Shown here: positions 16,738-63,379 of the stretch, one piece after another | Numbering within the stretch: position 1 is the first letter of the stretch | How the letters are laid out: every line of letters begins with the position of its first letter | DNA from: an uncultured beta proteobacterium | GTDB lineage: Bacteria > Pseudomonadota > Gammaproteobacteria > Burkholderiales > Burkholderiaceae_F | Direction: 5' to 3' | DNA: 64,000 nt | NCBI GenBank assembly: GCA_963766365.1 | Contig: CAVXZK010000010.1 | Span: forward strand, 5,783 to 69,782 | Notes under the pieces: model-generated | Told to the model about the DNA's origin: nothing | Seen by the model: only the letters and a program-made list of their open reading frames with translations | Databases searched by the model: none | Translations under genes and position numbers: made by a program

Positions 16738-18680
16738 GACGGCGAATACCAGATCGGCGCCGTGTACGCGCGCTCCTGCAGGGTCATCGTCACGCCGGCC
16801 GGAGCCTTGATACCGAAGCGCTTGACGTCGTATGCCGTCCACCGCGGCGTCGGGATCTCGAGCACGCGGGCGTAATAGAACGCACGATCGCCCGGCTTGA
16901 AGTCCGGGTCGCGCCACACGGTGATCAACTCGGGCGCGCCGACCGAGTTGGTCCACGTCGCATTGGCCACGTCGACGCTGCTGCCCACCGACGGTACCTT
17001 GCTGTCCTTGCCGGGCTTGCGGTCGCCGCTCCACACCACGTCGTAGACGCGTTCCTGCAACTCACCCTTGGCATCCATCCAGCCCTTGACGATCTGAATC
17101 CGATCGAGATTGGCGCCGATCGGGTCCTTCAACGCGGCAACGAGGAAGGTCGGCGCCTTGCCGGCGGGTGCTTTGGCAAGATCACCTCCCATCGGTACTC
17201 CCTTGGCGTAGCCGACCGCGGCGGGCAACCGGTTCTGCGCGTCCTGCGCCGCGAAGTCCCAGCCGCCGAAGAAGCGCACCGCCATACGCGTGCCCGTGGT
17301 GGCATACGTCTCGCGGCGCTTCATCGCGTCGAAGATCGCTTCGCGGCTGTTGTCGGTCGCCCATACCGCAGCGAACCCAGAGGCACCGACTTCCCAGTCC
17401 ATGATGCGAACGCCGGACTTTGCGTTGTTGAAGAAAGTCGCACTGATCCGCTCGGGGCTCGGCTCCTGCGGCACCGTCTTGCCGAAGAAGTTGTCTTCCT
17501 CCATCGCGGCGAGGCCGGTGTGCGAATCGCTGCTGCCGATCATGCCGAACTTGAAGGGGTTGACTCCCAGTTTCGCGTCCAGCTTGAGGCCATTCTTCAG
17601 TGCCGAGCGGGCGTACTCGAACTCGAGCATATCCTTCGTCTTGGCCACGGTTCCATCGAGATTGCCCTTGTCCCAGAGCTCGAAGTTCGCGAACTCGTCG
17701 TTCAACGACAGGAACGGATGCGCCTCCCCGGTGCCCTTGGTCTGCGTGACTTCATAAAGCGGTTCCCAGCGTGCGCGCGTCGCGGCGTACTCGCGATCGA
17801 TCGGCTTGCCGAACGCCTCGACGACCGGGAACATCCGCCCGTTGCTCAGGTTGCCGTTGTGTGCGATCGCGAGCACTTCGGTGCCCGTCTTCTCCTGCGT
17901 CGCCGCCATCCACTTCCACAGGTCGACCGGGTTGTCGCTGCCGAGCGGCTTCAGCGTCGTGTACGGCTCGACCAGCGAGGCCTGCGCGCCGTTGCCGCGA
18001 AAGATCACGTTGCGGTGCAGGTTGTTGCCGCCGGTATTGGACGTCCACTCGAAGCCGATGAACGCGGTGAACCGCCCGGGGTCGTTGTAGTCCTCGGCCG
18101 CCTTGATCGTCTGCTGCCACGCGCCGCGGTAAGCGGTGGTGCCGGGCAGCGGGAATCCCTCGGGCATCTGGCCCTTGCCAAAGCTGACGATGATGTCGAT
18201 CGCCGCCGCAGCGCCTTGCCCGCCGCGGATCTGGTCGTACCACTTGCGGCCCTGCGGCGTCGCGAGCAGTGCCGGGTCCCCGCCCATCAGCAATGGGAAG
18301 AAGCCCATGCCATCCGAGTGATCCGCGACCACCAGCCAGTCGAGCGGGCGCGACAACTGGACCCGCTGCCCGGTCGACGAGGTCACTTCCTCGCCGCGTG
18401 CGAAGCGGTAGGCGTCACTCGGGGACAGGCGGGCGCCGAACGCGCCCGCATCCATCGAGAATCCGGTGTGCAAGTGCGTGTCGCCGAACAGCGGTCGCGT
18501 CGGGAACTTGCGGCCCGCGTAGGGCGAGTAAAGCGGCTTGGCAGGATGAACCTTGTCGAGCGTCGCCTTGTCGGCGGTCCCGGAGATGCCGACGTTGCCC
18601 TGTTGCGCCAGTGCAGCCCAGAAAACTCCGCCGCCGACCGCGAAGGCAATGGCTGCCCTAATCAACCTCTTCGCACTCAT
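16734..18680 (-). CDS. secreted DUF3604-family protein (paralog A), PHP-like metal-dependent hydrolase fold
   Basis: 648 aa with a signal peptide. Motifs: FGDTHLHTGFSMDA, VADHSDGM, FEWTS, AIAHNGNLSNG, GSSDSHTG, C-terminal ..ERAYTAPIWYSP. Confidence 0.85.
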   Translation of the reverse strand: MSAKRLIRAAIAFAVGGGVFWAALAQQGNVGISGTADKATLDKVHPAKPLYSPYAGRKFPTRPLFGDTHLHTGFSMDAGAFGARLSPSDAYRFARGEEVTSSTGQRVQLSRPLDWLVVADHSDGMGFFPLLMGGDPALLATPQGRKWYDQIRGGQGAAAAIDIIVSFGKGQMPEGFPLPGTTAYRGAWQQTIKAAEDYNDPGRFTAFIGFEWTSNTGGNNLHRNVIFRGNGAQASLVEPYTTLKPLGSDNPVDLWKWMAATQEKTGTEVLAIAHNGNLSNGRMFPVVEAFGKPIDREYAATRARWEPLYEVTQTKGTGEAHPFLSLNDEFANFELWDKGNLDGTVAKTKDMLEFEYARSALKNGLKLDAKLGVNPFKFGMIGSSDSHTGLAAMEEDNFFGKTVPQEPSPERISATFFNNAKSGVRIMDWEVGASGFAAVWATDNSREAIFDAMKRRETYATTGTRMAVRFFGGWDFAAQDAQNRLPAAVGYAKGVPMGGDLAKAPAGKAPTFLVAALKDPIGANLDRIQIVKGWMDAKGELQERVYDVVWSGDRKPGKDSKVPSVGSSVDVANATWTNSVGAPELITVWRDPDFKPGDRAFYYARVLEIPTPRWTAYDVKRFGIKAPAGVTMTLQERAYTAPIWYSPS

Positions 18681-18747
18681 TCAAGCCTCCCGGCACGACC
18701 GCGCTAAATCGGGTCGTCAGTGTAGCCGGCGGTTACGGAGTGTCGCT

Positions 18748-20802
18748 CTACGAGCGCGGCGAGTACCAGATCGCCGACGTCCACGCGCGCTCCTGGTGCT
18801 TCATCGGAACGTCCTTGGACATCTTCACGCCGAAGCGCACCTGGTCGTAGGCGGTCCAGCGCGGCGTCGGAATCTCGACGACGCGTGCGTAGTAGTACGC
18901 GCGCTGCGAGGCCTTGAAGTCCGGGTCCTTCCACACGGCGCCGAGTTCGGACGCGCCGATCGTGTTGGTCCACGTGGCCCGCTCAACATCAACCGTATCG
19001 CCCACCGGCGGGACCTTGCCGTTCTTGCCGGGCTTGCGGTTGCCCGACCATGCGACGTCGTAGATCTTCTCGTAAGTCTTGCCCGCGGAATCGACCCAGC
19101 CCTTGACGATCTGGATGCGATCGAGGTTTCCGCCGACCGGGTCCTTGAGCGCCGCGACGAGGAACGTCGGCGTCTTGCCGGCCGGCGCAGCGTTGAGTTC
19201 TCCACCCATCGGCACACCCTTCGTGTAGCCCGCCTCGGCGAGATAGCGCGAACGCGCGTCGTCGGCGTTGAAGTCCCAGCCGCCAAACAGACGCACCGTC
19301 ATGCGCGTGCCAGACGTGGCGTACACCTCCTTGCGCTTCATCGCGTCCCACAGCGCTTCGCGCGTGTTCTCTGTCGCCCACACCGCGGCATAGCCTGCGG
19401 CGGTGTACTGCCAGTTGTAACGCGTCTTGCCGAGGCCCTTCTTGGACTCGTGTTCCCAACGCGTCGGGCTCGGCTCCTGATCGATGTGCTTGCCGTAGAA
19501 GTTGTCTTCCTCGATCGAGGTCAGCGAGTTGTGCACGTCGGTGCCGCCGATGATGCCGAACTTGAACGGGTTCACGCCCAGCTTCTTCTCGTGCATCAGT
19601 CCCTGCGCCAAACCGGGACGCAGGTAGTTGGTCGGCATCATCTCGCGCGACAGCGGCTGGCCTTCGAGCGTCAGGTTGCCGTACTCCCAGCCGGCGATGC
19701 CGAAGTTGGCGAACTCGTCGTTGGGCGACAGCAGCGGGTGAGTCTCGCTCGCACCCTTGGTCTGCATCATCTCCTGCAACACGTCGAAGCGCGCGCGCCG
19801 CTCGGCGTAATCCTTCGTCAGCGGCTTGCCGGCGAAGTCGACCGACTCGAACATGCGCCCGTTGGACAGGTTGGCGTTGTGCGCGATCGCGAGTAGCCTG
19901 CCGCCGGTCTTCTTTTCGTAAGTGTCCATCCACGCCCAGAGCTTTTCGGGGTCCTCGCTTTGCCAGGACGAGAACGGCAGGATCTGGTCGGACTTGTCCT
20001 TGCCGTCGCGGAACATGATGTTGCGATGCAGATTGTTGCCACCCGGGACCGAGGTCCACTCGTAACCGATCATCGCGGTGAAGCGGCCCGGTTCGTTGAA
20101 CTTGTCGGCGGTGGCGGTGTACTGCTGCCAGACCGACTTCATAATTGGGCCGACGACCTTCGGGTCCTTGATCGGCGGCGGCAGCGTGTTGTTCGCCTGC
20201 GCCGATATCAGTTCCCGCATCGTCGTGGCCGCTTCCTGCCCACCTGCCTTCATCGCCTTGCCCCAGCGCTCGAGCGTGGGGTCCGACGCGAACGCGGGGT
20301 TGCCCTCGTAGACCTGCAGCATCACGCCAAGGCCCTCGGCGTGATCGGTGACCACGAGGAAGTCGAGCGGGCGCGACAGCTTGGCAGGTACGCCGGTGGA
20401 CGAGATCACCTCCTCGCCGCGCGCGAACCGGTAGGCCTGCTCCGGGGTTAACCGGGCGCCCGCCATGAACGCGTCGCCGGAGTTGGCGGTGTGGTTGTGC
20501 GTGTCGCCGAAGTACACCCGCGTCGGGTACTTGCGGCCGGCGTAGGGCGAGTATTTCTTCTTGACCTCCATCTGCGCCGGGGTCTCGGGCTTGCGGGCGT
20601 GGTCCTCGCCGTCGTAGTGGTCAACCGCGGCCTTGACCACGACGTCGTCATTGGCGCCCACGCCCGGCGGGCTCTGGGCTGGCGCACGACTTGTCATTAC
20701 CAATGCCGCCACCATGACTGCGCTTGCCGACACGGCAAACACTGCGTATCGACTCCCTTTGGGTGCCATCGCCCTTCTCCCCTCGACGTTCAGGTCGTGC
20801 AA
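18748..20802 (-). CDS. secreted DUF3604-family protein (paralog B)
   Basis: 684 aa (start may be the Met at 20769). Motifs: FGDTHNHTANS, VTDHAEGL, YEWTS, AIAHNANLSNG, GGTDVHNS, ..ERAWTSAIWYSP. Confidence 0.85.
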   Translation of the reverse strand: MHDLNVEGRRAMAPKGSRYAVFAVSASAVMVAALVMTSRAPAQSPPGVGANDDVVVKAAVDHYDGEDHARKPETPAQMEVKKKYSPYAGRKYPTRVYFGDTHNHTANSGDAFMAGARLTPEQAYRFARGEEVISSTGVPAKLSRPLDFLVVTDHAEGLGVMLQVYEGNPAFASDPTLERWGKAMKAGGQEAATTMRELISAQANNTLPPPIKDPKVVGPIMKSVWQQYTATADKFNEPGRFTAMIGYEWTSVPGGNNLHRNIMFRDGKDKSDQILPFSSWQSEDPEKLWAWMDTYEKKTGGRLLAIAHNANLSNGRMFESVDFAGKPLTKDYAERRARFDVLQEMMQTKGASETHPLLSPNDEFANFGIAGWEYGNLTLEGQPLSREMMPTNYLRPGLAQGLMHEKKLGVNPFKFGIIGGTDVHNSLTSIEEDNFYGKHIDQEPSPTRWEHESKKGLGKTRYNWQYTAAGYAAVWATENTREALWDAMKRKEVYATSGTRMTVRLFGGWDFNADDARSRYLAEAGYTKGVPMGGELNAAPAGKTPTFLVAALKDPVGGNLDRIQIVKGWVDSAGKTYEKIYDVAWSGNRKPGKNGKVPPVGDTVDVERATWTNTIGASELGAVWKDPDFKASQRAYYYARVVEIPTPRWTAYDQVRFGVKMSKDVPMKHQERAWTSAIWYSPRS

Positions 20803-20811
20803 TCTTCGGAT

Positions 20812-21801
20812 TCAGAACTTGTAGACGGCCTTCAGCCAGATGTAGTCGCCGTCGAGGCGGTTCTTCGTGTCCATCTCGAACAGCCACTTGAACTCCACTA
20901 CGAACGACTCGGTCTTGCTCAACGGCTGGATGTAGCCGATCACGGGACCGAGCCCCGCGGTGCGCCCCTTGAAGCAGCCAAGCACCGCGCCCGAGCCGCT
21001 GTCGCAGCTCACCTGCTGGAAATAGAACCCTTCGGCACCGAGTGTCATAAGCCCCGTGCCCAACGGCAGGATCTGCTCGATCGCCCCGTCGAAATGCAGA
21101 ACACTGCCGCTCTTGTAGTCGGTGTCGGGATTCTCGGTGTTGATCGCGTAGCCGGTGTTCAGCAGCGCGTTGAAGCCGCTCTTCGTGTTGCTGTAGGTCA
21201 CGCCGAACACCGGATCGAACGTCCAGTAGTTCAGGCCCGGATTGCCGAGCCGGCCCTCCTGATAGCTGCCGGTCGGCGCGTAGATCGGCAGCACGAAGTT
21301 GTATTGCCAGTGGCTATCGGGTTCCTTCCACGCCAGCATGGTCGGAATGAACGTCAGGTCGCCGAAGCCCGAAACGCTGCTGTCGACCCGTCTCGTCACT
21401 CCGCTGCGCGACTGCACGCTGGCCGAGACGTCCAGAAAGGAGTACGGCAATGCGGCGACCATCGAATAGGTCGCGCCGAAAACCTTCCCCTCAAACGCAT
21501 AGATGCCCGCCAGAACGAAGGTGTTTGCCGTGGCCTCCAGGTTGCTGGCCAGCCCTGCCGCGGTCGGGATCTCTTTCGTCGCGCTGCCGCTGTAGTTGAG
21601 GTACATCGGCTTGATGATCATGCCCGGTGCGGTCGGCGCGTTGTCGATGAGCGTGGACATCGAGCCAGGGATCACGTGGGTCGTTCCGCCTTCGCCGGCC
21701 GTGGCCGTCTGCGAAAGCGCGAGGGTGAGCGACACCATCGCACCCGCCGCCGTGCGACGCCAGAGCTGCGTCGATCGAATCCTTTTGGACGACCTTCTCA
21801 T
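20812..21801 (-). CDS. outer-membrane beta-barrel channel (MetA-pathway/'transporter' family-like)
   Basis: Start at MRRSSKRIRSTQLWRRTAAGAMVSLTLALSQTATA (signal peptide). Has an alternating beta-strand pattern and a C-terminal ..YIWLKAVYKF aromatic terminus typical of OMPs. Confidence 0.72.
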   Translation of the reverse strand: MRRSSKRIRSTQLWRRTAAGAMVSLTLALSQTATAGEGGTTHVIPGSMSTLIDNAPTAPGMIIKPMYLNYSGSATKEIPTAAGLASNLEATANTFVLAGIYAFEGKVFGATYSMVAALPYSFLDVSASVQSRSGVTRRVDSSVSGFGDLTFIPTMLAWKEPDSHWQYNFVLPIYAPTGSYQEGRLGNPGLNYWTFDPVFGVTYSNTKSGFNALLNTGYAINTENPDTDYKSGSVLHFDGAIEQILPLGTGLMTLGAEGFYFQQVSCDSGSGAVLGCFKGRTAGLGPVIGYIQPLSKTESFVVEFKWLFEMDTKNRLDGDYIWLKAVYKF

Positions 21802-21865
21802 TCTGCGACTCCTTTTTTTGCTTTCCTGGATGAACGTCCCGCATGGGTCATGCGCGCTCTGCAGC

Positions 21866-23768
21866 TCAGGGCGTGTACCAGATCGGCGAAGTCCACGCGC
21901 GCTCCTGAATCGTTGCCGGCACGTCCTTGAGAAGCGGCAGGTTGTTGCGTACGGCGTCATACGTCGTCCAGCGAGGGGTTGGAATTTCCAGCACGCGGAC
22001 GTAGTAGAGCGCCGGTCGCTTCGGATCGAACGCCGGATCGGTCCAGCGGCCCATCAGTTCGGGGGCACCGATGCTGTTCGTGTACGCGGCCGTCTTCGTA
22101 TCGACGGTGTTGCCGACCGGCGGCAGCTTGCCGTCCTTGCCCGCTTTGCGTTCGCCGCTCCAGGCGACGTTGAATACCTTGTCTTGCGGCTCGCCTTTCG
22201 CGTCGACCCAGCCCTTGACGATCTGGATGCGGTCGAGGTTCGCGCCGTTCGGGTCCTTCGCCGCCCAGACCGTGAACGCCGGCGCCTTCGACAGTGACTT
22301 GAGGGTTCCGCCCATCGGCACGCCGGACTTGTAGCCCTGCTCGACCAGTGCCTTGCCGTCGGCCGGTGCAGCCAGATCGGCACCTCCGAAGAGCCGCGCC
22401 TTGATGCGCGTGCCCGAGGTCACGAACGACTCGCGCGCCGCCATCGCGTCCCAGATTGCAGCGCGCGTATTTCTCGTCGCCCACACGGCCGCGAGCGTCC
22501 CGGGACTCGACTCCTTCGCCTTGATCCAGCCATCGATCTCGCCCTCGCGCCGGACCTGCACCGTGTCGTCGGCGGGGCCGTGACTGCCGATGTAGTCGTT
22601 CTCGGCGACGTCCGAAGGCAGGCCGTTATGGTTGTCTGTGCCGCCCGTGAAACCGAGCTGGTACGGATTGGCGCCGAGCTTCGCCTGATAGTCGAGTCCC
22701 TTGATGACCGCCCAGCGTACGAAGTTCTGCTTCTGGAAAGTGCGGCCGCTGAAAGTCGCCACGCTGTCCGCGTTCTCGAAGTTCGCGAACTCGTCGGCTG
22801 GCCAGAACTTGCGGTGCACCTCCGAGTTGCCCTTGATCTGCATCATCTCGATCAGGCGCTCGAAGTGACTTCTGCAGCCGCGCGTAATCGGCGGTCAGCG
22901 GCTTGCCGGCACGGTCGGCCGCGTTGAACATGTAGCCCTTGCTGCCGTTCGAGTTGTGCGGGATCGCGAGCAGCCTGCGGCCCTGCTTCTCCTGCTCCGC
23001 CATCCACGACCAGAGCTTCTCCTCATCGTCGGTGTCGAGGGCCGAGAGCGGCACTTCGGGTACGTTGAGGTCGCGGAAGAGGACGTTGCGGTGCATGTTC
23101 CCGGCGTCACGCGAGGCGGTCCATTCGAAGCCTGCCAGCGTCGTGAATCGGCCGGGCTGGTAGTGGTCGCGGGCCGCCTTGATGATCACGTCGTTCCAGG
23201 CCGACTTCGTCGTCTCCGGCCCCGCGTAGAACGGCGGATGGCCCGGGTTGTCGCCGCGCATGTTGCTGATGACGTACTTCACGAACCACGCGCGCTGCTC
23301 TTCGACGTCCTTCAGGCCGCGCAGTTCAGCCAGCATCGGGTTGTCGTAGCCCTTCGCGCCCCTGACCTGCGCGGAATACATCTCGCCGATGAACTCGGCG
23401 TGATCCGAGACCGCAACGAAGTCGAGCGGTCGGCCGATGTTGTGCTTGATCCCGTGGACCGTGACTTCCTGCCCCTTGGCGAAGCGGTAGGCCTCGTCCG
23501 GCGTGATGCGCGCGCCGCCGATGAAGGCGTCCATCGAGAACGAGGTGTGCACGTGTGTCTCGCCGAAGAACGCCTCCTTGAGCGGACTCTGCGGCACGGC
23601 GGCCTCAAGCGCCTCGACGGTCGGGGGTTTCGGGGCCGCCGTCGCGGCCGCTTCGGCCTTGGCGGCGGGCGCTTGCGGCGTCTCGGCCTGTTGACCACAG
23701 CCGCTCAATATGAGCAGCGCGCAGGCGATCACACCGGTTGCACTCAACTTGGCACTCATCGTCTTCAT
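21866..23768 (-). pseudogene. DUF3604-family lipoprotein (paralog C) split by one +1 frameshift near 22872-22877
   Basis: Track ORFs 22626-23768 and 21866-22846 are the N- and C-halves of one DUF3604 protein. The lipobox is ..ILSGCGQQ. Motifs: FGETHVHTSFS, VSDHAEFI, FEWTA, AIPHNSNGSKG, GGTDNHNG, ..ERAWTSPIWYTP. Homology switches frame between ..PLTADYARL and SHFERLIEMMQIKG. Confidence 0.78.
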
Positions 23769-31964: not shown

Positions 31965-32245
31965 CGGTCAGTGTTGGGTGTGGAACACGGAGCAGGGCGG
32001 TGCTCGGCGGGGACCAAGAAGGCAACGGACCAACTCCGGTTCCACCTTCATGATGTCGGCAGCCGGGTGGCCCGGCTTGACTGCGCCGGCTCTTTTCAAC
32101 GGATCGCGCCGACGTGCGGCCGACGGACGGCCGGCTGCGGCCGCAAGCGCTGGAATTGACGGGCCGAGCGCGGCGTTCTCGGCGCACTTGGTCGCAGCCT
32201 GATACCGCAAACTTGGGACCTGTTGACTGCCGCGGGGAGCCTGTG

Positions 32246-33031
32246 ATGGATCTCACCGAACCGACCAGTGTTGGATTCAATACCCTGAACCGCCCTACGG
32301 GCCCGGCAACGCTGGGAACGATCACGGTTCCGACCGTGGTTGGCTCCGCGTCGGCAATTGCGGCTGAGCGCGGCGCGGCGAATCGCGAGATCGCTTCATG
32401 GCGCCAGTTGAAGATGTGGCTCGACGGTGAAAGCCTGCAGTCGGCGGCGACGGTCAAGCTGATCGGCGTGCATGAAGGCAAGTCGCTGCTCGTGACGGCG
32501 CCGGACGAATCACAGCTCTTCATCCGCGAAGGGCGGCTGTACCGCTTCCGCAGCTTTTCGGGCGAGTACGTCTACGAATTCGTGTCGCCGCTGCTCAAGG
32601 TCTGCACGGCACCGTTTCCCTACCTGCATATTGGCTGGGCCGGTACGCGCCAGGTGGAAAGGCGCAATCTGCGCGCTGCGCGCCGCGTGCGGTCTGACCT
32701 CCAGTGCATGGTCTACCCGGGTCATACTGCCAGCGGCCGCTTTGCCAAAGGCCAGATCCACGACCTGTCCACCGCGGGCGCCGCGATCACGCTGCAGGAC
32801 GAGCTGGCCGTGTTCTACGACGAGATCCGCGTCGTGTTCCGTGTGCACGTGGCTGAGCAGGAAGTGCTGATCGAGGCGCGCGCCCGTCCGGTCCGCAAGC
32901 CGGAGCCCGGCGCGACCGATCCCACCCTCGGTGTCGCCTTCGTCGGCCTGGGCGATCTCGAACGTCTCGCCCTTCACGCCTACGTCAACGCCGCGCTGGT
33001 GCGCGAACTCGAGATACCGCTTTACGCCTGA
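32246..33031 (+). CDS. YcgR-like flagellar brake protein (PilZN + PilZ), paralog 1
   Basis: Start at MDLTEPTSVG... PilZ motifs are ..ERRNLRAARRV.. and ..DLSTAGAAI... Confidence 0.72.
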   Translation: MDLTEPTSVGFNTLNRPTGPATLGTITVPTVVGSASAIAAERGAANREIASWRQLKMWLDGESLQSAATVKLIGVHEGKSLLVTAPDESQLFIREGRLYRFRSFSGEYVYEFVSPLLKVCTAPFPYLHIGWAGTRQVERRNLRAARRVRSDLQCMVYPGHTASGRFAKGQIHDLSTAGAAITLQDELAVFYDEIRVVFRVHVAEQEVLIEARARPVRKPEPGATDPTLGVAFVGLGDLERLALHAYVNAALVRELEIPLYA

Positions 33032-33427
33032 CGCCGCTCACGTACGCGACGCGCTGCGCGCGTCGCACGTGCGCTCGCGGCAGTACGGTTCGCGCATCGC
33101 GCGAACCGCTCAAGCCTGATTAGTCGGCTGCGCTCCGGAGCAGCCGCGCGCTCCGCTGAAGACCAGACCCACGCACTCCTCCCCGCGTTGCTCCTAGCAG
33201 TGCCAGGATTTCCGTTCCCTCCCCGCCGGGCGGGGAGGGTGCAGGGAGGGGTGCACATCTCCTCCCGCTCGGCGGGAGGCCGGGTGGGTGCCGTGCTGTT
33301 AATGATCGGCGGAGCGTGCGGCCGCTCCGGAGCGCAGCCGACTAACCTGTCTTGAGCGCGCACGCAGTGCGCGTTACCGGAGCGAGCGCACGTGCGACCG
33401 CGCAGCGGTCGCGTACACGAGCGACGT
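33032..33427. repeat. nested-palindrome repeat element, copy A (MITE-like or structured RNA)
   Basis: Aligns along its length with 43815-44193. It has terminal inverted repeats (cgctcacgtacgc / gcgtacacgagcg) and several internal hairpins. It starts 1 nt after the TGA of the upstream gene. Confidence 0.8.
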
Positions 33428-33430
33428 CTC

Positions 33431-33457
33431 AAAAAAAATGGCCCGGTTGCCCGGGCC
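33431..33457 (-). terminator. rho-independent terminator of flhDC
   Basis: On the minus strand, ggcccgg-gcaa-ccgggcc is followed by a T8 run, about 85 nt downstream of the flhC stop. Confidence 0.75.
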
Positions 33458-33541
33458 AAATAGCGGAGGAAAGGAATGCCACTTGCACTTAGCCGGCGGC
33501 CGTGGCCTCCACCGGCACCCGTCGGTTTTCCCGACGGCAAA

Positions 33542-34093
33542 TCAATGCAGTGTTTCTTCGGCGGGCGCGGTGGTGATCTGGGCCTTGCCCTTGCCGGCAC
33601 GGGCCGGGGGTTCGCACAGGCCACACACGTAGTCCTTCGTCAGTTCGAACGTGTGGGTGACAAATTTGCCGCCACACTTGCAGCAGGGCGTCAGCGTCAC
33701 CATGCCGGCATCGACGAACTTCACCAGGCGCCAGGCGCGCGTCACCGATAGCAACGGCTCCAGGCCCTGAGCGCGAATCTGTTCGAGGTACAGCTCGTAC
33801 GCTTTGATGATGGCGTCGATTTCCTCGAGTTCGCTGCTCTTGTCCAGGTACTCGTACATGTTCAGGAACAGCGACGAATGGATGTTCGGCTGCCACGTCA
33901 TGAACCAGTCGGTCGAGAACGGCAGCATGCCGCGCGCCGGGGACTCACCCTGCACTTCCTTGTACAGGCGCAGCAGCCGCTCGTACGACAGGTCAGTCTC
34001 GGACTCCAGCACCTGCAGGCGCGCGCCCAGCTTGATCAGCGCAATCGCGCGCTGGATCTGGCGGCTCTCGGAAACAATGCTCTTGATACGCAT
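33542..34093 (-). CDS. flhC: flagellar master regulator subunit FlhC
   Basis: 183 aa, MRIKSIVSESRQIQRAIALIKLGARLQVLESETDLSYERLLRLYKE.. plus the Cys cluster ..CCKCGGKFV..CGLC... Confidence 0.95.
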   Translation of the reverse strand: MRIKSIVSESRQIQRAIALIKLGARLQVLESETDLSYERLLRLYKEVQGESPARGMLPFSTDWFMTWQPNIHSSLFLNMYEYLDKSSELEEIDAIIKAYELYLEQIRAQGLEPLLSVTRAWRLVKFVDAGMVTLTPCCKCGGKFVTHTFELTKDYVCGLCEPPARAGKGKAQITTAPAEETLH

Positions 34094-43406: not shown

Positions 43407-43814
43407 ATGCCACCGGGCGACTACATCCAGCGCTTTGGCTTTCGTCGCTGGTACGAACGGCAACTGATCGAAAGCCACGGCTATCTGGCGCTGGGCTTCG
43501 TGGCGCTCATCCTGATGCTGTCGGGCGCTGAGGTGCTGAGCGACATGAAAGCCGGCGCCGGCTACGTCACCACGCTGCTGGTGGCAGCGGGTGGTGGGCT
43601 GCTGGTCCTGGTGTCCTGGAAGCGCTTCAACGTGCTGCTGGCGCGGGCAGAACGCTTTGCCGAAGCCGCCGAGTGCCCGGCCTGCAAGACGTGGGGCAAG
43701 TTCCGCGTGCTCGGCCAGGAAGCCGCCCCCGAAGACGACCCTCCCGAGGCCGGCCGCCCCCGCTGGCTGCGCGTGCGCTGCACGAAGTGCGGGGGGGAGT
43801 GGAAGATAGGGTGA
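43407..43814 (+). CDS. membrane protein with C-terminal CxxC..CxxC zinc ribbon
   Basis: 135 aa with two TM helices, then ..AECPACKTWGKFRV..RVRCTKCGGEWKIG. Confidence 0.55.
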   Translation: MPPGDYIQRFGFRRWYERQLIESHGYLALGFVALILMLSGAEVLSDMKAGAGYVTTLLVAAGGGLLVLVSWKRFNVLLARAERFAEAAECPACKTWGKFRVLGQEAAPEDDPPEAGRPRWLRVRCTKCGGEWKIG

Positions 43815-44193
43815 GCGTCGCTCGTGTACGCGATCGGCTGCGCCGATCGCACGTGCACTTGCTCCGATACGGTTCGCGCCCTGCGCGAACCGTTCAACAC
43901 TGATCAGTCGGCTGCACTCCGGAGCGGCCGCGCGCTTCGCCGAGTAACCAAGGCGGTTACTCCACCCCGCGACGCATCTTGCGGTGCCAGGATTGCCTTT
44001 CCCTCCTCGCCCGGCGAGGAGGGTGCAGGGAGGAGTGCGCCATTCCCTCCCGCGTGGCGGGAGGGCAGGGTAGGTGCACGGGAGTTAAAAGTCGGCGGAG
44101 TGCGCGGCCGCTCCGGAGCGCAGCCGACCAACTAATCGGAGCGAGTGCACGTGCAAGTCCTGGCAGCGCCGGGACTTGCGTACACGAGCGGCG
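43815..44193. repeat. nested-palindrome repeat element, copy B
   Basis: Homologous to 33032-33427. It exactly fills the gap between the TGA of the 43407-43814 gene and the stop (44194-44196) of the convergent kinase gene. Confidence 0.8.
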
Positions 44194-45760
44194 CTACTCC
44201 CAAAGCGTGAAGTAGAACGTCGCCCCGTGCCCGGGATTCGGGGCGGGGACGGCTTCGGCCCAGATGCGACCGCCGTGGCGGCGGATGATTTTCTGCACGG
44301 TGGCAAGGCCAACACCGGTGCCGGGAAATTCGTTGGCACTGTGGAAACGCTGAAACAGGCCGAAGAGCTTCTCGGCGAAACGCATGTCGAAGCCGGCCCC
44401 GTTGTCCTTCACGAAATAGGTGCGCGTGGCGTGGTCGTCCCGGGTACCGAATTCAATTCGTGCTTGCGGTGTCTTGGCGGTGAACTTCCACGCATTGCCC
44501 AGCAGGTTCTGCAGCACCAGGCGCAGCAGTGTGCTGTCGCCGTCGGCGCGCAAATCCGGTGCGATGACGAATTCAACGGCGCGCGTATGGTCCTGGCCGC
44601 GCAGATCATCGGTGAGTTCGCGGGCGATCTGGGTCAGGTCGACGCGCTCGCGCGTGAGTTCGCGGCTGGTCATGCGCGACAGGGACAGCAGCGTCTCGAT
44701 CATCGAGTTCATGCGCTGGCCGGCGGCGACGATCCGTCGCAGGTGGTCGCGGCCGAGTTCGTCCAGCGGCTTGCCGCGGTCTCCGTAGTCCTCGAGCACG
44801 ATCGTGGCGAAGCCGTCCACGACGCGTAGCGGGGCGCGCAGGTCGTGCGACACGGAGTAGGAGAAGCTGTCGAGTTCGCGCAGCGCGTGCTCGAGCTCGA
44901 CCGAGCGTTCGGCGAGTTGCCGGTTCCGCTGCTCGAGGTCTGACTTCAGCTGAGTGACCTCGCCGGCCGTCGCCGGGGCGGCGCTCCCGAGCAGGGGAGT
45001 GAGGTCGTGCGCGGCGCCGGCATAGCCGCGGAAGGTGCCAGTGCCAGAGAACAACGGCGCGCCCGAGAGGGCGAGGATACGCAGCGGCTGTCCATCGGTT
45101 CCGTTCACCTCGACGCGCACGTCGAAGTAGGGTGCGCGCGCGGCGAGTGCCGTCAGCAGAGCGCGCGGTGCGTCGGCCCCTGGGGCGATTTCCCACGGGC
45201 GGCGGCCGACGAGGGACTTGCAGTCGAACCAGTCAATCGCACGATGACTGCGCTCGACTTCGACAACCAAGCCATCCGCGTTGGTGCGCCACGACCAGGT
45301 GGCCGAGGCGGCCAGGGATTGCCGCATTGCATTGAGTTCGCGTCGGGAACGGTGCTGCTGGGCGAGCACGACGCCAGTCAGTGCGATGAGCGCGCCGATC
45401 GACGCGGCGCCAAGCAGCCACAGCGCGGCGATGCCGCCCTGCGGCGCGCCGAGCGCCACGGTGGCCGCCGACGCGGGCGATGCCGCGCTGGCTGCGACGA
45501 ATGTCGCTGCGGCCGCTCTAGCGACGCGTGCGAGTGCACGCTCGCGTGCACCGGCGCGTGTCTGCGCGTTCCTCGTCAGAAAAGTTGCTTTCCCCACCGG
45601 TTCCGATTGTGCAGCAACACAGGGGCCGACGCGAGTGCGCACGCCTGCTTGGCGGTGTCTGAAATGCCCTTGGAGGGTGCGGCTTTTCAAGGGGTTGGGC
45701 TCCCCGCTTCGGACTAGCCTGCCATGACGTTCCGACTGGTGCGTTCGCTCGCGCCCATTC

Positions 45761-45762
<2 letters not shown>
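44194..45762 (-). CDS. membrane sensor histidine kinase (PAS-like, HisKA, HATPase_c)
   Basis: ..[19 protein letters not shown].. H-box, ..LLGNAWKFT.. N-box and ..GTGVGLATV.. G2 box. The N-terminal extent is uncertain. Confidence 0.85.
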
Positions 45763-54890: not shown

Positions 54891-55200
54891 GCAAAGTCCG
54901 CCGGGCGATCGCGGTGGCCTAACGGTCATCGAGGAAAGTCCGGACTCCGTAGAGCAACGTAGCAGGTAACGCCTGCCCACCGCGAGGTGAGGATCAGAGC
55001 AACAGAGACGAGCCGATTCAGTTCGGGTGAAACGGGCAATCTCTACGCGGAGCAACACCAAATAGGCGGCCGATGATCCTGCTCGGGGAGGTCGCGGGTA
55101 GGTGGCTAGAGCCGGCGGGTGATCGCCGGCCCAGAGGAATGATCGCTGCGGCGCCTGCAAGGGCATCGAACAGAATCCGGCTTACAGGCGGACTTTGCCT
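54891..55200 (+). ncRNA. rnpB: RNase P RNA (bacterial type A)
   Basis: Has the universal GAGGAAAGTCCGG (54931-54943) and the 3' ACAGAATCCGGCTTAC box. P1 pairs caaagtccgcc (54892-) with ggcggactttg (55187-55197). Confidence 0.85.
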
Positions 55201-62066: not shown

Positions 62067-63221
62067 ATGCTGCTTGAACTGTTCGACTGGCTGGCGCGAG
62101 ACATCCGGGCGTTCAACGTCTTCTCGTACCTGACGTTGCGCGCCGTGCTCGCCGCCGGCACGGCGCTGGTGATCGGGCTTGCCGCGGGACCCTGGGTGAT
62201 TCGCAAGCTGACCGAACTGAAGATCGGCCAGGCCGTGCGCAACGACGGTCCGCAGACACACCTCGCCAAGACCGGCACGCCGACGATGGGCGGCGCGCTG
62301 ATCCTGATCTCGATCGGCATCACGACGCTGCTGTGGGCGGATCTGTCCAACCGCTTCATCTGGGTCGTGCTGATTGTGACGGTGGGCTTCGGGTGGATCG
62401 GCTGGGTCGACGACTACCGCAAGGTCGTGCACCGGAATCCCAAGGGCATGAGCGCCAGGGAAAAGTACTTCTGGCAGTCGCTGATCGGCCTGGTCGCGGC
62501 GTTCTACCTCGCCTTCGCGATCGCGGCGCCGTCGACCGACCGGATCTGGGACCTGATGCTGCTGTGGGTGCAGCAGGGTTTCTACATCGATCTGCCGCCA
62601 CGCTCCGACCTGCTGGTGCCGTTCTTCAAGAACGTCGCCTATCCGCTCGGCGTGTTCGGCTTCGTCGTGCTCTCCTACCTCGTCATCGTCGGCACCAGCA
62701 ATGCGGTCAACCTGACGGACGGACTCGACGGGCTCGCGATCATGCCGACGGTAATGATCGGTGCCGCGCTCGGGGTGTTCGCCTATGTCGTGGGCCGGGC
62801 GGATTTCGCGCGTTACCTGCTGTTCCCGTACATCCCCGGTGCGGGTGAACTCGTGATCATCTGTGGCGCGATCGCCGGCGCGGGCCTGGCCTTCCTCTGG
62901 TTCAACGCCTACCCGGCCGAAGTCTTCATGGGCGATGTCGGCGCGCTGGCACTCGGCGGAGCGCTCGGCACGATCGCCGTCATCACGCGGCAAGAGATCG
63001 TGCTCTTCATCATGGGCGGCGTGTTCGTAGTCGAGACGGTCTCCGTGATGATGCAGGTGGCCTTCTTCAAGTGGACCAAGGGCCGGCGCATCTTCCGCAT
63101 GGCACCGCTGCACCACCACTTCGAACTCTCGGGATGGAAGGAGACGCAGGTCGTCGTGCGGTTCTGGATCATCAGCATGATGCTGGTGCTCGTAGGTCTC
63201 TCCACGCTGAAGATCCGATGA
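62067..63221 (+). CDS. mraY: phospho-N-acetylmuramoyl-pentapeptide transferase MraY
   Basis: 384 aa, ..GTPTMGG.., ..[13 protein letters not shown].., ..MAPLHHHFE.., ending ..[21 protein letters not shown]. Confidence 0.95.
63155..63221 (+). repeat. direct repeat, copy 1 (authentic 3' end of mraY)
   Basis: The 66-67 nt segment c-gtgcggttctggatcatcagcatgatgctggtgctCgtaggtctCtccacgctgaagatccgAtga is repeated at 63313-63379 with 3 mismatches. Confidence 0.9.
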
Positions 63222-63379
63222 GCGAAGTCAAGCACGACGGGTGCGGCTGGACGAGGCTCATGCGCGCAGCGCGTGAAGCGAGCGCTGCGAGCGGCCGAGG
63301 CCAGACCTCACCCGTGCGGTTCTGGATCATCAGCATGATGCTGGTGCTGGTAGGTCTTTCCACGCTGAAGATCCGCTGA
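63218..63379 (+). CDS. candidate 53-aa single-pass membrane micro-protein, coupled to both mraY and murD
   Basis: The ATG overlaps the mraY stop (ATGA at 63218-63221) and the TGA overlaps the murD ATG (TGATG at 63377-63381). The product is [32 protein letters not shown] + [21 protein letters not shown]. Its last 21 residues are identical to the MraY C-terminal helix. There is no independent SD, and translation is unproven. Confidence 0.35.
63313..63379 (+). repeat. direct repeat, copy 2 (duplicated mraY 3' end abutting murD)
   Basis: It lies 158 nt downstream of copy 1. The three differences (CTC/CTG, CTC/CTT, CGA/CGC) are all synonymous third-codon positions in the MraY frame. Confidence 0.9.

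Follow-up and report, generated by a model that had tools for sequence, protein, structure and literature searches.

An apparently undescribed family of nested-palindromic repeats behind stop codons in uncultured Betaproteobacteria

The window, that is, the whole 64-kb stretch of DNA analysed here, holds two stretches of nested palindromes beside stop codons, which raises the question of what these stretches are and what they do at the ends of genes. The first-pass annotation had described them as about three quarters identical from end to end, and this is borne out: copy A (33031/2-33427) is homologous to copy B (43815-44194), with 82% mean column identity in an end-to-end alignment and 78% over 321 nt by BLAST. 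Every inverted-repeat layer that it had named is present in both sequences, from an outer layer CGCTC..GTACGC / GCGTAC..GAGCG and a next layer GCACGTGC to long arms of ~35 nt (GTCGGCTGC.CTCCGGAGC.GCCGCGC) and a centre with CCCTCC..GGAGGG hairpins. The predicted folds have energies of -294.9 kcal/mol for copy A (z = -17.7 against dinucleotide shuffles) and -277.9 kcal/mol for copy B (z = -17.5), and 0 of 100 shuffles folded as well. No further copies or solo modules were found elsewhere in the 64-kb window, and both copies are, as claimed, devoid of an open reading frame and of an adjacent transposase. The features of the copy A locus are as follows.

32114..33031, + strand: PilZ/YcgR-like gene, left neighbour of copy A; its stop TGA (33029-33031) abuts the element
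33031..33427, + strand: copy A, whole element, 397 nt including the shared A of the TGA stop; orientation + from the asymmetric centre (nhmmer E=2e-108 on + versus 9e-65 on -)
33031..33047, + strand: left terminal inverted repeat, ACGCCGCTCACGTACGC (family consensus GCGTCGCTCGTGTACGC)
33046..33066, + strand: left H1 cassette hairpin, GCGACGCGC-tgc-GCGCGTCGC; 10 occurrences of this stem in the family, five on each arm
33086..33108, + strand: left H2 hairpin, CGGTTCGCGC-atc-GCGCGAACCG; optional, and missing from many copies
33123..33159, + strand: left S3 arm box, GTCGGCTGCGCTCCGGAGCAGCCGCGCGCTCCGCTGA; nearly invariant across the family
33160..33305, + strand: asymmetric centre domain
33173..33179 with 33248..33254, + strand: centre helix, GCACTCC pairing with GGGGTGC, one T.G wobble
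33217..33239, + strand: centre hairpin C1, CCCTCCCCGCC-g-GGCGGGGAGGG
33261..33279, + strand: centre hairpin C2, CCTCCCGC-tcg-GCGGGAGG
33306..33342, + strand: right S3 arm box, matching the left one in reverse complement
33357..33373, + strand: right hairpin at the H2 position, CGCGCAC-gca-GTGCGCG; no counterpart in copy B
33394..33412, + strand: right H1 cassette hairpin, GCGACCGC-gca-GCGGTCGC; stem seen 17 times, joint commonest
33411..33427, + strand: right terminal inverted repeat, GCGTACACGAGCGACGT
33431..33458, - strand: intrinsic terminator of flhC, a hairpin with a T-run; outside the right end of copy A and not part of the element
33542..34093, - strand: flhC, to the right of copy A and running towards the PilZ gene

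The corresponding features at copy B are these.

43407..43814, + strand: open reading frame of 135 aa to the left of copy B, without a significant Pfam family; TGA stop at 43812-43814
43815..44194, + strand: copy B, whole element, 380 nt; its last C is the first base of the kinase CTA (TAG stop)
43815..43831, + strand: left terminal inverted repeat, GCGTCGCTCGTGTACGC, same as the family consensus
43830..43850, + strand: left H1 cassette hairpin, GCGATCGGC-tgc-GCCGATCGC; stem seen 17 times in the family
43869..43893, + strand: left H2 hairpin, ACGGTTCGCGC-cct-GCGCGAACCGT
43907..43943, + strand: left S3 arm box
44001..44023, + strand: centre hairpin C1, CCCTCCTCGCC-c-GGCGAGGAGGG
44045..44065, + strand: centre hairpin C2, CCCTCCCGC-gtg-GCGGGAGGG
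44092..44128, + strand: right S3 arm box
44153..44179, + strand: right H1 cassette hairpin, GCAAGTCCTGGC-agc-GCCGGGACTTGC; a cassette of the long type, one T.G
44178..44194, + strand: right terminal inverted repeat, GCGTACACGAGCGGCGC
44194..45762, - strand: histidine kinase (HisKA + HATPase_c), right neighbour of copy B; the G of its TAG stop (44196-44194) lies in the last base pair of the element

The placement of both copies reads as first described. Copy A starts at the base that follows the TGA of the PilZ gene (33029-33031), and the A of that codon occupies the position of the family's terminal G. Copy B fills the gap between two convergent stop codons, from the base after the TGA (43812-43814) to the C of the CTA (44194-44196), where the minus-strand histidine kinase has its TAG stop. 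One correction applies to the right side of copy A, which is not at a stop codon: the end of flhC is 114 nt off, and flhC is separated from the element by its own intrinsic terminator (33431-33458, minus strand).

Beyond the window, a 19-base arm motif occurs in more than 113 stretches among the matches listed, nearly all of them in about 16 betaproteobacterial MAG species labelled 'uncultured beta proteobacterium' or Burkholderiaceae, and a profile search returned 123 non-overlapping matches, of which 61 were full length and about 60 partial. The proposal of a dispersed repeat family is borne out by these numbers, and the alternative that only two copies exist fails. Full copies are ~340-410 nt long, and the 59 that form the analysed set fall into 17 orthologous locus groups. 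Additionally, the arm and terminal segments were 20-40x deeper than their flanks in four metagenomes, where the DNA consists of Logan contigs that are broken at the repeat and therefore yield relative depth and arm-only joints; neither an empty site nor an inversion was seen in them. Motif matches and metagenome depth combined put the copies per genome probably in the tens. The family is hosted by a clade of uncultured Burkholderiaceae-type Betaproteobacteria from soil, wetland and freshwater; the plasmid collection searched for the element gave no match, and no RNA run was found to contain it.

The family is apparently new. A search of the whole window against Rfam 15 matched only RNase P, away from the element, the element itself reached only chance-level scores (<=22 bits), and no match to an already described REP or MITE family was found in the literature or Rfam. 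There is no conserved open reading frame in the element, its indels are not multiples of three, and no promoter or terminator was found inside it. Integron attC sites and CRISPR were dropped as candidates, since the sequence lends neither any support. What has been found is, apparently, a family of non-coding nested-palindromic repeats that has so far gone undescribed.

Each element runs inwards from a 17-nt terminal inverted repeat (TIR) through a perfect but variable hairpin (H1), an optional second hairpin (H2) and a 37-nt box (S3) to an asymmetric centre of ~150 nt with two CCCTCC/GGAGGG hairpins. H1 and H2 are palindromic modules of 17-29 nt that are repeated on both arms, with G/C-closed stems of 6-13 bp and 3-nt loops. 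At the H1 position, 94 of 118 hairpins are perfect (80%) and 40 distinct stems occur, of which six account for 70 of the 118 hairpins, each on both arms and at many loci. The order of modules is fixed and the cassettes are interchangeable; arm-only, half, tandem and solo-end variants were all seen. S3 consists of two overlapping palindromes and contains the perfect palindrome GCTCCGGAGC. Its mean identity is 96.8% over all pairs, copies and species, compared to ~76% for the centre, whether copies are orthologous or not, and to third codon positions of flanking genes, where identity is 85-90% with the closest relative and 55-77% with distant ones. S3 is conserved well past the level of synonymous sites.

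The interchangeable cassettes bear directly on the paired differences between copies A and B, from which selection on the fold had been argued. The differences in the first hairpin (33046-33066, GCGACGCGC/GCGCGTCGC, versus 43830-43850, GCGATCGGC/GCCGATCGC) and in the centre hairpin (33217-33239, CCCTCCCCGCC/GGCGGGGAGGG, versus 44001-44023, CCCTCCTCGCC/GGCGAGGAGGG) are in the sequence as claimed. The three-position change in H1 does not hold up as covariation, as the two copies carry different ready-made cassettes. In the centre the argument stands: across the family alignment, in which 97.7% of cells are paired, 8 pairs are double-changed versus 2.3 in shuffles (0 of 500 shuffles reach this number) and 36 cells versus 9.9, and the CCCTCC hairpins and one longer-range centre helix show compensatory changes beyond both the shuffle and the slide controls. 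These family-wide changes in the centre helices argue that the fold is maintained there. Intermediates of the G.U/G.T type outnumber A.C about twofold (50 versus 23) on the + strand, an excess too slight to assign the strand or to tell an RNA fold from a DNA fold. S3 shows conservation without covariation.

The preference for sites next to stop codons, first seen in the two window copies, extends to the family. All analysed copies are extragenic, and they lie almost exclusively at the 3' ends of genes, for the most part spanning the entire interval between two convergent stops. By rough gene calls, 34 of 59 reach from stop to stop and most ends lie -1 to +8 nt from a stop; about 14 of the 17 locus groups are between convergent genes. 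The adjoining stops are TAG 50 times, TAA 23 times and TGA 22 times, against a background of 59% TGA. The boundaries of the 17-nt terminal inverted repeats are sharp family-wide, with common termini GCGTCGCTCGTGTACGC...GCGTACACGAGCGACGC, and several terminus variants occur; some copies have extra solo termini and tandem modules beside them. GTAG is found in 30 of 118 terminal flanks (25% of ends), compared to 3.7% of random windows and ~15% of ordinary gene ends. The idea that it is a tag carried by the element was rejected, as the enrichment over gene ends is mild and the TAG is already present in an empty site at the maf-rng junction.

This junction, inside an operon of co-directional genes, is empty in L134 and L186, where 3-4 nt separate the stop from the ATG, and closer relatives have full, arm-only or remnant elements there. 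Empty sites are present, then, in more distant relatives. None was found among motif-selected loci, which is an ascertainment effect, and relatives anchored on flhC are uninformative in this regard because their gene order differs (flhDC-motAB). Where species share an occupied locus, the copies differ by swapped cassettes, flipped centres, collapse to the arm-only form and nested insertion sequences (IS), and the orientation of the centre is flipped among orthologs at 4 of 17 locus groups. The comparison of a window copy with its ortholog in L101 is an example: whole cassettes and compensated changes of subfamily type differ, and the flanks are 94-98% identical.

No enzyme that moves the element was seen at its own loci. 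A transposase associated with the element was absent from the loci examined, and E. coli RayT, run as a tblastn query against 1.3 Mb of element loci and the window, gave nothing real, its sole match being rejected because it falls in the open reading frame of a GNAT acetyltransferase. No target-site duplication of any length was detected at the 59 copies, nor a fixed target sequence, with TA at both ends in 1 of 59 and no fixed bases at flanking positions. Pairs of arms spaced by 1.5 kb were considered as an autonomous parent and rejected, as the extra 1.32 kb is an IS481-family element with its own ends (TGTGCAACCGGG... / GTACAGACCGGG...), which differ from the element termini. This IS is nested in the element at four loci, at internal positions ~180 or ~220, and its transposase is the only one seen among the matches listed. 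No full-length autonomous IS that shares the element termini was found among the more than 113 motif-bearing stretches listed. Further, no near-identical paralogs turned up, the best within-genome core identity being 93%, so that nothing points directly to transposition in the very recent past. The sampled full copies are confined to 17 loci that are shared by descent. The spread could therefore be ancient and the family now immobile, and turnover could then be due to recombination alone.

Of the three candidates offered by the first-pass annotation, the 'MITE/REP-BIME-like mobile repeat' fits best; the other two, a 3'-UTR RNA and an insulator, may be effects that follow from where the element lies. 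We consider it likely that the element is a non-autonomous mobile repeat of the REP/BIME/REPIN kind, which comes to rest as one 3' structure serving the genes on both sides. It would be copied to new sites, now or until recently, by an enzyme acting in trans, and this putative enzyme would recognise S3, the terminal box or both, with single-stranded DNA in its folded state as the most likely substrate. Because target duplications are lacking and the modules are hairpins, our tentative first guess for the mover is a HUH/Y1 (RAYT- or IS200/IS605-like) enzyme; a DDE transposase that uses the 17-nt inverted termini is a rather doubtful second guess. Insertions would survive only directly behind stop codons, with TAG and TAA favoured. 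Reshuffling could then proceed by gene conversion or re-insertion from other copies, by recombination between the long inverted arms, which would invert the centre, and by slippage between the palindromic GCTCCGGAGC boxes, which would yield arm-only forms.

At gene ends, both convergent genes would have to transcribe into the element, and for this reason the giant hairpin would be the sole 3'-end structure at copy B and on the PilZ side of copy A. We infer that the hairpin may stabilise the transcript and slow or stop the polymerase. By analogy with E. coli REPs close to stop codons, it possibly also damps translation termination.

An ordinary MITE, that is, an internally deleted derivative of a DDE-transposase IS that moved by cut-and-paste or copy-out via the 17-nt TIRs, with the inner palindromes incidental, would account for the sharp family-wide boundaries, the intergenic position, a length of 340-410 nt with no coding capacity, and the existence of both empty and occupied sites; the solo ends beside some copies resemble transposition debris. 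This explanation is nevertheless unlikely, as target-site duplications of any length are absent and no full-length relative with the same ends occurs among the more than 113 stretches listed, the 1.3-kb 'long' versions being due to the unrelated nested IS481-family element. Conservation also peaks in the internal S3 and not at the termini, which themselves occur as several variants.

The size, the conserved asymmetric centre and the covariation are unusual for REP/BIME and may leave room for a host-selected function as RNA or DNA. A structured RNA, either a large 3'-UTR or a stand-alone ncRNA, whose centre has a cellular role and whose module is shared by many genes, is suggested by a fairly conserved, asymmetric centre made of two CCCTCC/GGAGGG hairpins and an exposed GGGAGGAG stretch, by centre helices that covary significantly at 97.7% pairing, and by the 2:1 excess of G.U-type over A.C intermediates on the + strand. 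The element has kept its loci in species whose synonymous sites are 25-45% diverged, and its place right behind stop codons guarantees co-transcription. We judge this reading improbable, since the centre is dispensable, with sister species having arm-only forms at the same loci, and flips relative to the flanking genes at 4 of 17 locus groups, which is hard to reconcile with a strand-specific, gene-tied role. Convergent neighbours mean that both strands are transcribed anyway, near-perfect arm stems of at least 100 bp typify DNA repeats and not functional RNAs, promoter-like sites and Rfam matches are absent, and S3, the best-conserved part, lacks covariation. That same box is the main argument for a host device at the DNA level, either a protein-binding or cruciform site (nucleoid, gyrase or IHF, of the sort described for BIMEs) or a barrier between converging units, with S3 as the protein site: its identity of 96.8% across every copy and species is well beyond that of neutral sites, its perfect palindrome GCTCCGGAGC would suit a protein that binds DNA as a dimer, the neighbouring genes converge in about 14 of 17 locus groups, and several proteins are reported to bind BIMEs (PMC2817692). 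Such a device is highly improbable as a full explanation. No binding protein is known or predicted for the element, recognition by a mobilising enzyme or homogenisation among copies would explain the conservation of S3 equally well, and the maf-rng copy lies inside an operon, where a transcription barrier would harm. The device also leaves origin and dispersal unexplained and is better seen as an addition to the mobile-repeat reading than as a substitute for it. A very improbable variant is a domesticated, two-faced gene-end module in which recombination between the arms inverts the centre and S3 is the site of a dedicated recombinase or binding protein; each orientation of the centre would then act differently on the converging genes, for instance by way of an antisense promoter or of an RNA or protein site specific to one strand. 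Should this be true, the family would be a dispersed switch of a novel kind between converging genes, beyond selfish DNA.

The reading as a mobile repeat of the REP/BIME/REPIN kind can be placed against known systems. REPs adjoin or supply stop codons, between convergent or tandem genes (PMC3733652), and are favoured targets of specific insertion sequences (PMC1525189). The element resembles the REP/BIME repeats of Enterobacteria and Pseudomonas in its GC-rich extragenic hairpin modules, mosaic arrays of alternating orientation and conserved linkers, in its position downstream of convergent or co-directional genes, touching or supplying the stop codon (PMC3733652), and in the lack of target duplication, the targeting by IS (PMC1525189) and the long persistence at the same loci. 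It differs in its 340-410 nt, three nested palindrome layers, fixed 17-nt termini and near-invariant 37-nt box, in the 150-nt asymmetric covarying centre that BIMEs lack, in the weak enrichment of the GTAG tag, and in that no RAYT gene was seen in 1.3 Mb of element loci. The REPIN-RAYT system (Bertels and Rainey; PMC3116915, PMC3337134) offers a symmetric doublet that forms one long hairpin, to which the arm-only form corresponds, and a population around a consensus in which copies are about equidistant whether orthologous or paralogous and persist vertically over long times. REPINs, however, are ~70-110 nt long and have no conserved asymmetric core (PMC3116915, PMC3337134). Their defining mark is one RAYT gene per genome with the same REPs on either side, whereas the element is known from repeats alone, with copy numbers that look like tens and not hundreds.

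Foldback MITEs (Correia/NEMIS of Neisseria, ERIC/IRU, RUP, Nezha) are likewise non-coding, a few hundred bases long and bounded by TIRs, but the element has neither a TA or other target duplication nor, among the matches listed, a parent IS, and its hypervariable perfect hairpin cassettes and invariant inner box are not MITE features. To our knowledge, its termini are unrelated in sequence to the 26-nt TIR of Correia/NEMIS and to those of other foldback MITE families. A further likeness is that foldback MITEs are gene-adjacent, co-transcribed and form strong hairpins able to alter the fate of mRNA (PMC3733652). The CGTC-tagged REP families 1-4 (Di Nocera et al. 2013, PMC3733652) share with the element a CGTC near the end (terminal consensus G-CGTC-GCTCG) and a mostly head-to-head arrangement, and a dedicated transposase is known for neither. 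CGTC REPs, mainly from Alphaproteobacteria, have 8-9 bp stems opening with complementary A/T, loops of 4-5 nt and a CCA tail (PMC3733652); the element breaks these rules of stem, loop and tail with its G/C-closed stems of 6-13 bp, 3-nt loops and larger unit.

For practical purposes, the family is a recognisable cause of assembly breaks in metagenomes of the host organisms, and it flags mis-called intergenic 'ORFs' and hot spots of IS insertion. If the mobile-repeat reading is true, the REP/BIME/REPIN world would extend to abundant uncultured Betaproteobacteria of soil, wetland and freshwater, and in an unusually elaborate version, the parts of which are under distinct regimes: fixed ends, swap-in hairpins, a near-invariant box and a structure-conserving core. 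The family would then be a test case for which enzyme recognises such repeats, why they settle directly behind stop codons, how their copies are homogenised and whether their hosts have come to depend on them as the sole 3'-end structure of convergent genes.

The two stretches that the first-pass annotation had described as homologous from end to end are both present, and align over their full length at a mean column identity of 82%. Both are predicted to form a single, very large hairpin with nested stems, more stable than any shuffle (copy A, −294.9 kcal/mol, z = −17.7; copy B, −277.9 kcal/mol, z = −17.5). Their placement relative to stop codons was also borne out: copy A begins immediately behind the TGA that ends a PilZ/YcgR-like gene, and the final A of that codon occupies the position of the family's usual terminal G; copy B fills a convergent gap from the base after a TGA to the C of a CTA, where the opposing histidine kinase gene has its TAG stop. 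On the right side of copy A, the canonical intrinsic terminator of the convergent flhC is intact between the element and flhC, and no promoter-like or terminator-like site was found inside copy A. Five or more other MAGs keep this terminator at the orthologous locus, in every case immediately beyond the repeat's edge.

Window 33029-33031: TGA stop of the PilZ/YcgR-like gene
Window 33032-33427: copy A
Window 33431-33458, minus strand: flhC intrinsic terminator, GGCCCGGGCAACCGGGCC then a T-run
Window 43812-43814: TGA stop preceding copy B
Window 43815-44194: copy B
Window 44194-44196: CTA, the TAG stop of the convergent histidine kinase
Window 54893-55200, plus strand: RNase P RNA, bacterial class A (Rfam, 228 bits)

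The RNase P RNA is the window's only Rfam family, no Rfam family matches copies A or B, and the 64-kb window holds no further copies or solo modules. Other repetition in the window comprises a 67-nt direct repeat (63155-63221 and 63313-63379, 96% identity) that spans the 3' end of a membrane-protein gene, and three tandem paralogous stretches of ~2 kb each (16806-23517; 65-76% identical, 2017-3112 nt apart), probably a small tandem gene family.

Beyond the window, a scan of one genome per species with the 19-base arm motif GCTCCGGAGYGCAGCCGAC identified at least 113 stretches bearing it; among the matches listed, nearly all occur in ~16 MAGs recorded as 'uncultured beta proteobacterium' or as 'Burkholderiaceae bacterium', and a few single matches in unrelated phyla were taken as chance. 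A profile derived from copies A and B returned at least 123 non-overlapping hits in the motif-bearing loci, at least 61 of them full length (340-410 nt). The reading proposed from the window is partly supported, in that the element belongs to a REP/BIME/MITE-type repeat family. The motif recurs at 11 or more loci along one 1.48-Mb contig of the closest relative. In four soil/freshwater metagenomes containing the window's organism, depth over the arm and terminal segments is 20-40x that of the flanking genes, which fits tens of copies per genome, with other organisms adding to the depth. The plasmid collection held no match to the element, and a literature search returned no such element described in Burkholderiales.

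The left and right arms are inverted copies of one another, with an asymmetric centre of ~150 nt between them. From the outside inward, an arm opens with a terminal box (consensus GCGTCGCTCGT) that leads into GTACGC; next come the variable hairpin H1 and then GCACGTGCAC with a short box, an optional second hairpin (H2, CGGTTCGCGC-nnn-GCGCGAACCG) followed by a linker, and a 37-nt box (S3, GTCGGCTGCGCTCCGGAGCGGCCGCGCGCTCCGCCGA) that includes the perfect palindrome GCTCCGGAGC. The centre contains a GCACTCC/GGAGTGC helix plus a small hairpin, and the hairpins C1 (CCCTCCTCGCC/GGCGAGGAGGG) and C2 (CCCTCTCGC/GCGAGAGGG), between which GCAGGGAGGAGTGC is unpaired. Arm-only derivatives of ~200 nt are the exact product expected of deletion between the two GCTCCGGAGC palindromes (e.g., locus L119), and 'skip 193' joints in metagenomes match this deletion.

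Paired stem changes between the two copies had been read as covariation and as an argument for a selected fold; the example drawn from H1 did not survive, while maintenance of the fold is upheld by the centre helices. Perfect stems make up 94 of the 118 H1 hairpins, another 18 contain a single mismatch, and the 40 distinct stems (6-13 bp) are so unevenly used that six of them account for 70 of the 118. Every common stem turns up in left and right arms alike and at numerous loci, so the three-position 'compensation' that sets copy A apart from copy B represents a different, interchangeable cassette and not three paired point mutations. The four centre helices are paired in 97.7% of cells, compared to 49-67% in a control with slid partners. 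Eight pairs are changed on both sides versus 2.3 in shuffles (0/500), and doubly changed cells number 36 versus 9.9, counts that are inflated by relatedness and subfamily structure. The clearest covarying pair is a T-A/C-G alternation in C2 (23 versus 20, with 2 mismatched intermediates). These comparisons say that the centre hairpins are kept, and the excess of wobble-type intermediates on the plus strand (only ~2x A.C) is compatible with a DNA or RNA fold on either strand. No RNA sequencing run was found to contain the element.

Genomic position was assessed for 59 full copies, which are non-independent and represent 17 groups of orthologous loci. Based on rough gene calls, 34 of the 59 run from stop to stop, and most ends lie −1 to +8 nt from a stop. 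Where flanks were read, approximately 14 of the 17 locus groups are convergent gene pairs, one lies within an operon where the maf stop meets the start of rng, and two are left unclassed. Stops adjoining the element ends are TAG (50), TAA (23), and TGA (22), whereas ordinary genes at the same loci use TGA (59%), TAG (32%), and TAA (10%); the element's terminal G is very often the G of a TAG stop. The classical REP tag GTAG occurs at 25% of ends, an enrichment far above random DNA (3.7%) and mildly above ordinary gene ends (~15%). No target duplication is visible flanking the 59 full copies.

The maf-rng junctions of many relatives, collected by a metagenome scan with RNase G, include empty, filled, and decayed states.

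L048:3476-3870: maf-rng repeat locus, with orthologs L043, L060, L067, L076, and L086
L119-L121, L158, L161, L183, and L184: further loci at the maf-rng junction

Two more distant relatives, whose RNase G is 82-84% identical, have only 3-4 nt between the maf stop (TAA/TAG) and the rng ATG. Within the element-bearing clade, a full element is present at five loci, an arm-only form at two, and a remnant of just the two termini at one, and further junctions retain just the last 'GCGTACACTT' motif ahead of the ATG. The empty and filled junctions together imply that the element inserted into a spacer only a few nucleotides long, right after a pre-existing TAG/TAA stop; it has since been rebuilt or eroded, differing by lineage. 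Without some targeting or very strong selection, insertion into gaps this narrow at 17 loci would be improbable. Leftover spacer is not trimmed as a rule, since one side of copy A retains 114 nt with a terminator. At maf-rng the repeat ends 0-9 nt upstream of the rng (RNase G) ATG, leaving no space for a Shine-Dalgarno sequence.

Turnover within the element is evident from the closest relative, in which the flanks are 94-98% identical to the window (third codon positions 85-90%) whereas the orthologous copy has another left H1 cassette and lacks the left H2, and its centre, only 78.5% identical, carries a set of perfectly compensated differences that are marks of another subfamily. Over all pairs the centre is ~76% identical, alike for orthologs, paralogs, and distant species, and the S3 arms are 96.8% identical everywhere, with third codon positions of flanking genes down to 55-77%. 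There are no near-identical pairs of copies (best core identity 93-94%), and centre orientation is flipped among orthologs in 4 of the 17 locus groups. S3 thus appears to be either strongly constrained or constantly homogenised, and in the element outside S3 three processes would do the reshuffling: sequence transfer from other copies (conversion, or re-insertion into filled sites), inversion between arms, and slippage. An extra solo 17-nt terminus or whole terminal module lies 5-9 nt past the full copy at L010, L045, L047, L058, L082, and L088, which suggests that insertion recurred at sites already filled or that older copies were only partly removed; tandem modules also lie beside several copies.

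Arm pairs spaced 1.5 kb apart were considered as a parent element and rejected; these are copies of the element split by an IS481-family IS of 1.32 kb with different ends (TGTGCAACCGGGAAC... and GTACAGACCGGGTAC...), whose 438-aa transposase has rve and LZ_Tnp_IS481 domains.

L036:1105-2424: IS481-family IS inside the repeat
L040:3377-4697: IS481-family IS inside the repeat
L044:4756-6074: IS481-family IS inside the repeat
L085:5551-6869: IS481-family IS inside the repeat
L062:4982-6289: IS481-family IS inside the repeat, in the ortholog of copy B

At three non-orthologous loci the IS interrupts the repeat at one and the same point and faces the same way; at a fourth, the ortholog of copy B, it lies elsewhere in the repeat, reversed, and is 99.4% identical to another IS copy in the same genome. 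It evidently targets this repeat, apparently at the CCCTCC-rich centre, a likeness to the several IS that target REPs (PMC1525189). As for the mobilisation of the repeat itself, four features (hairpin modules, insertion at gene ends, vertical persistence over long times, and no target duplication) favour an HUH/Y1-type, REP-like mechanism as the leading candidate, ahead of a DDE MITE, which would account for the sharp 17-nt inverted termini. A tblastn search with the E. coli RayT against 1.3 Mb of family loci and the window, a small fraction of the genomes, returned nothing real.

The family shares its gene-end position, TAG-stop sharing, and larger folds with the REPs described by Di Nocera et al. 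(PMC3733652), which lie mainly between convergent and co-directional genes, often provide the TAG stop codon through their termini, and form dimers that fold into larger structures; long TIR families around some tyrosine transposases are described there as well. REPINs are described as populations of sequences that persist for long times around a master sequence (PMC3116915, PMC3337134), which matches the turnover seen here. Compared to known REPs and related repeats, the present element is larger (~400 nt, in three nested layers), has a near-invariant inner box and ready-made perfect hairpin cassettes, and has a structure-conserving asymmetric core, which inverts. Liang, Rudd and Deutscher (Mol Cell 2015) reportedly found that, in E. 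coli, a REP no more than ~15 nt from a stop codon lowers expression of the upstream gene through ribosome stalling. By analogy, such stop-proximal damping of the upstream gene could extend to the copies of this family.
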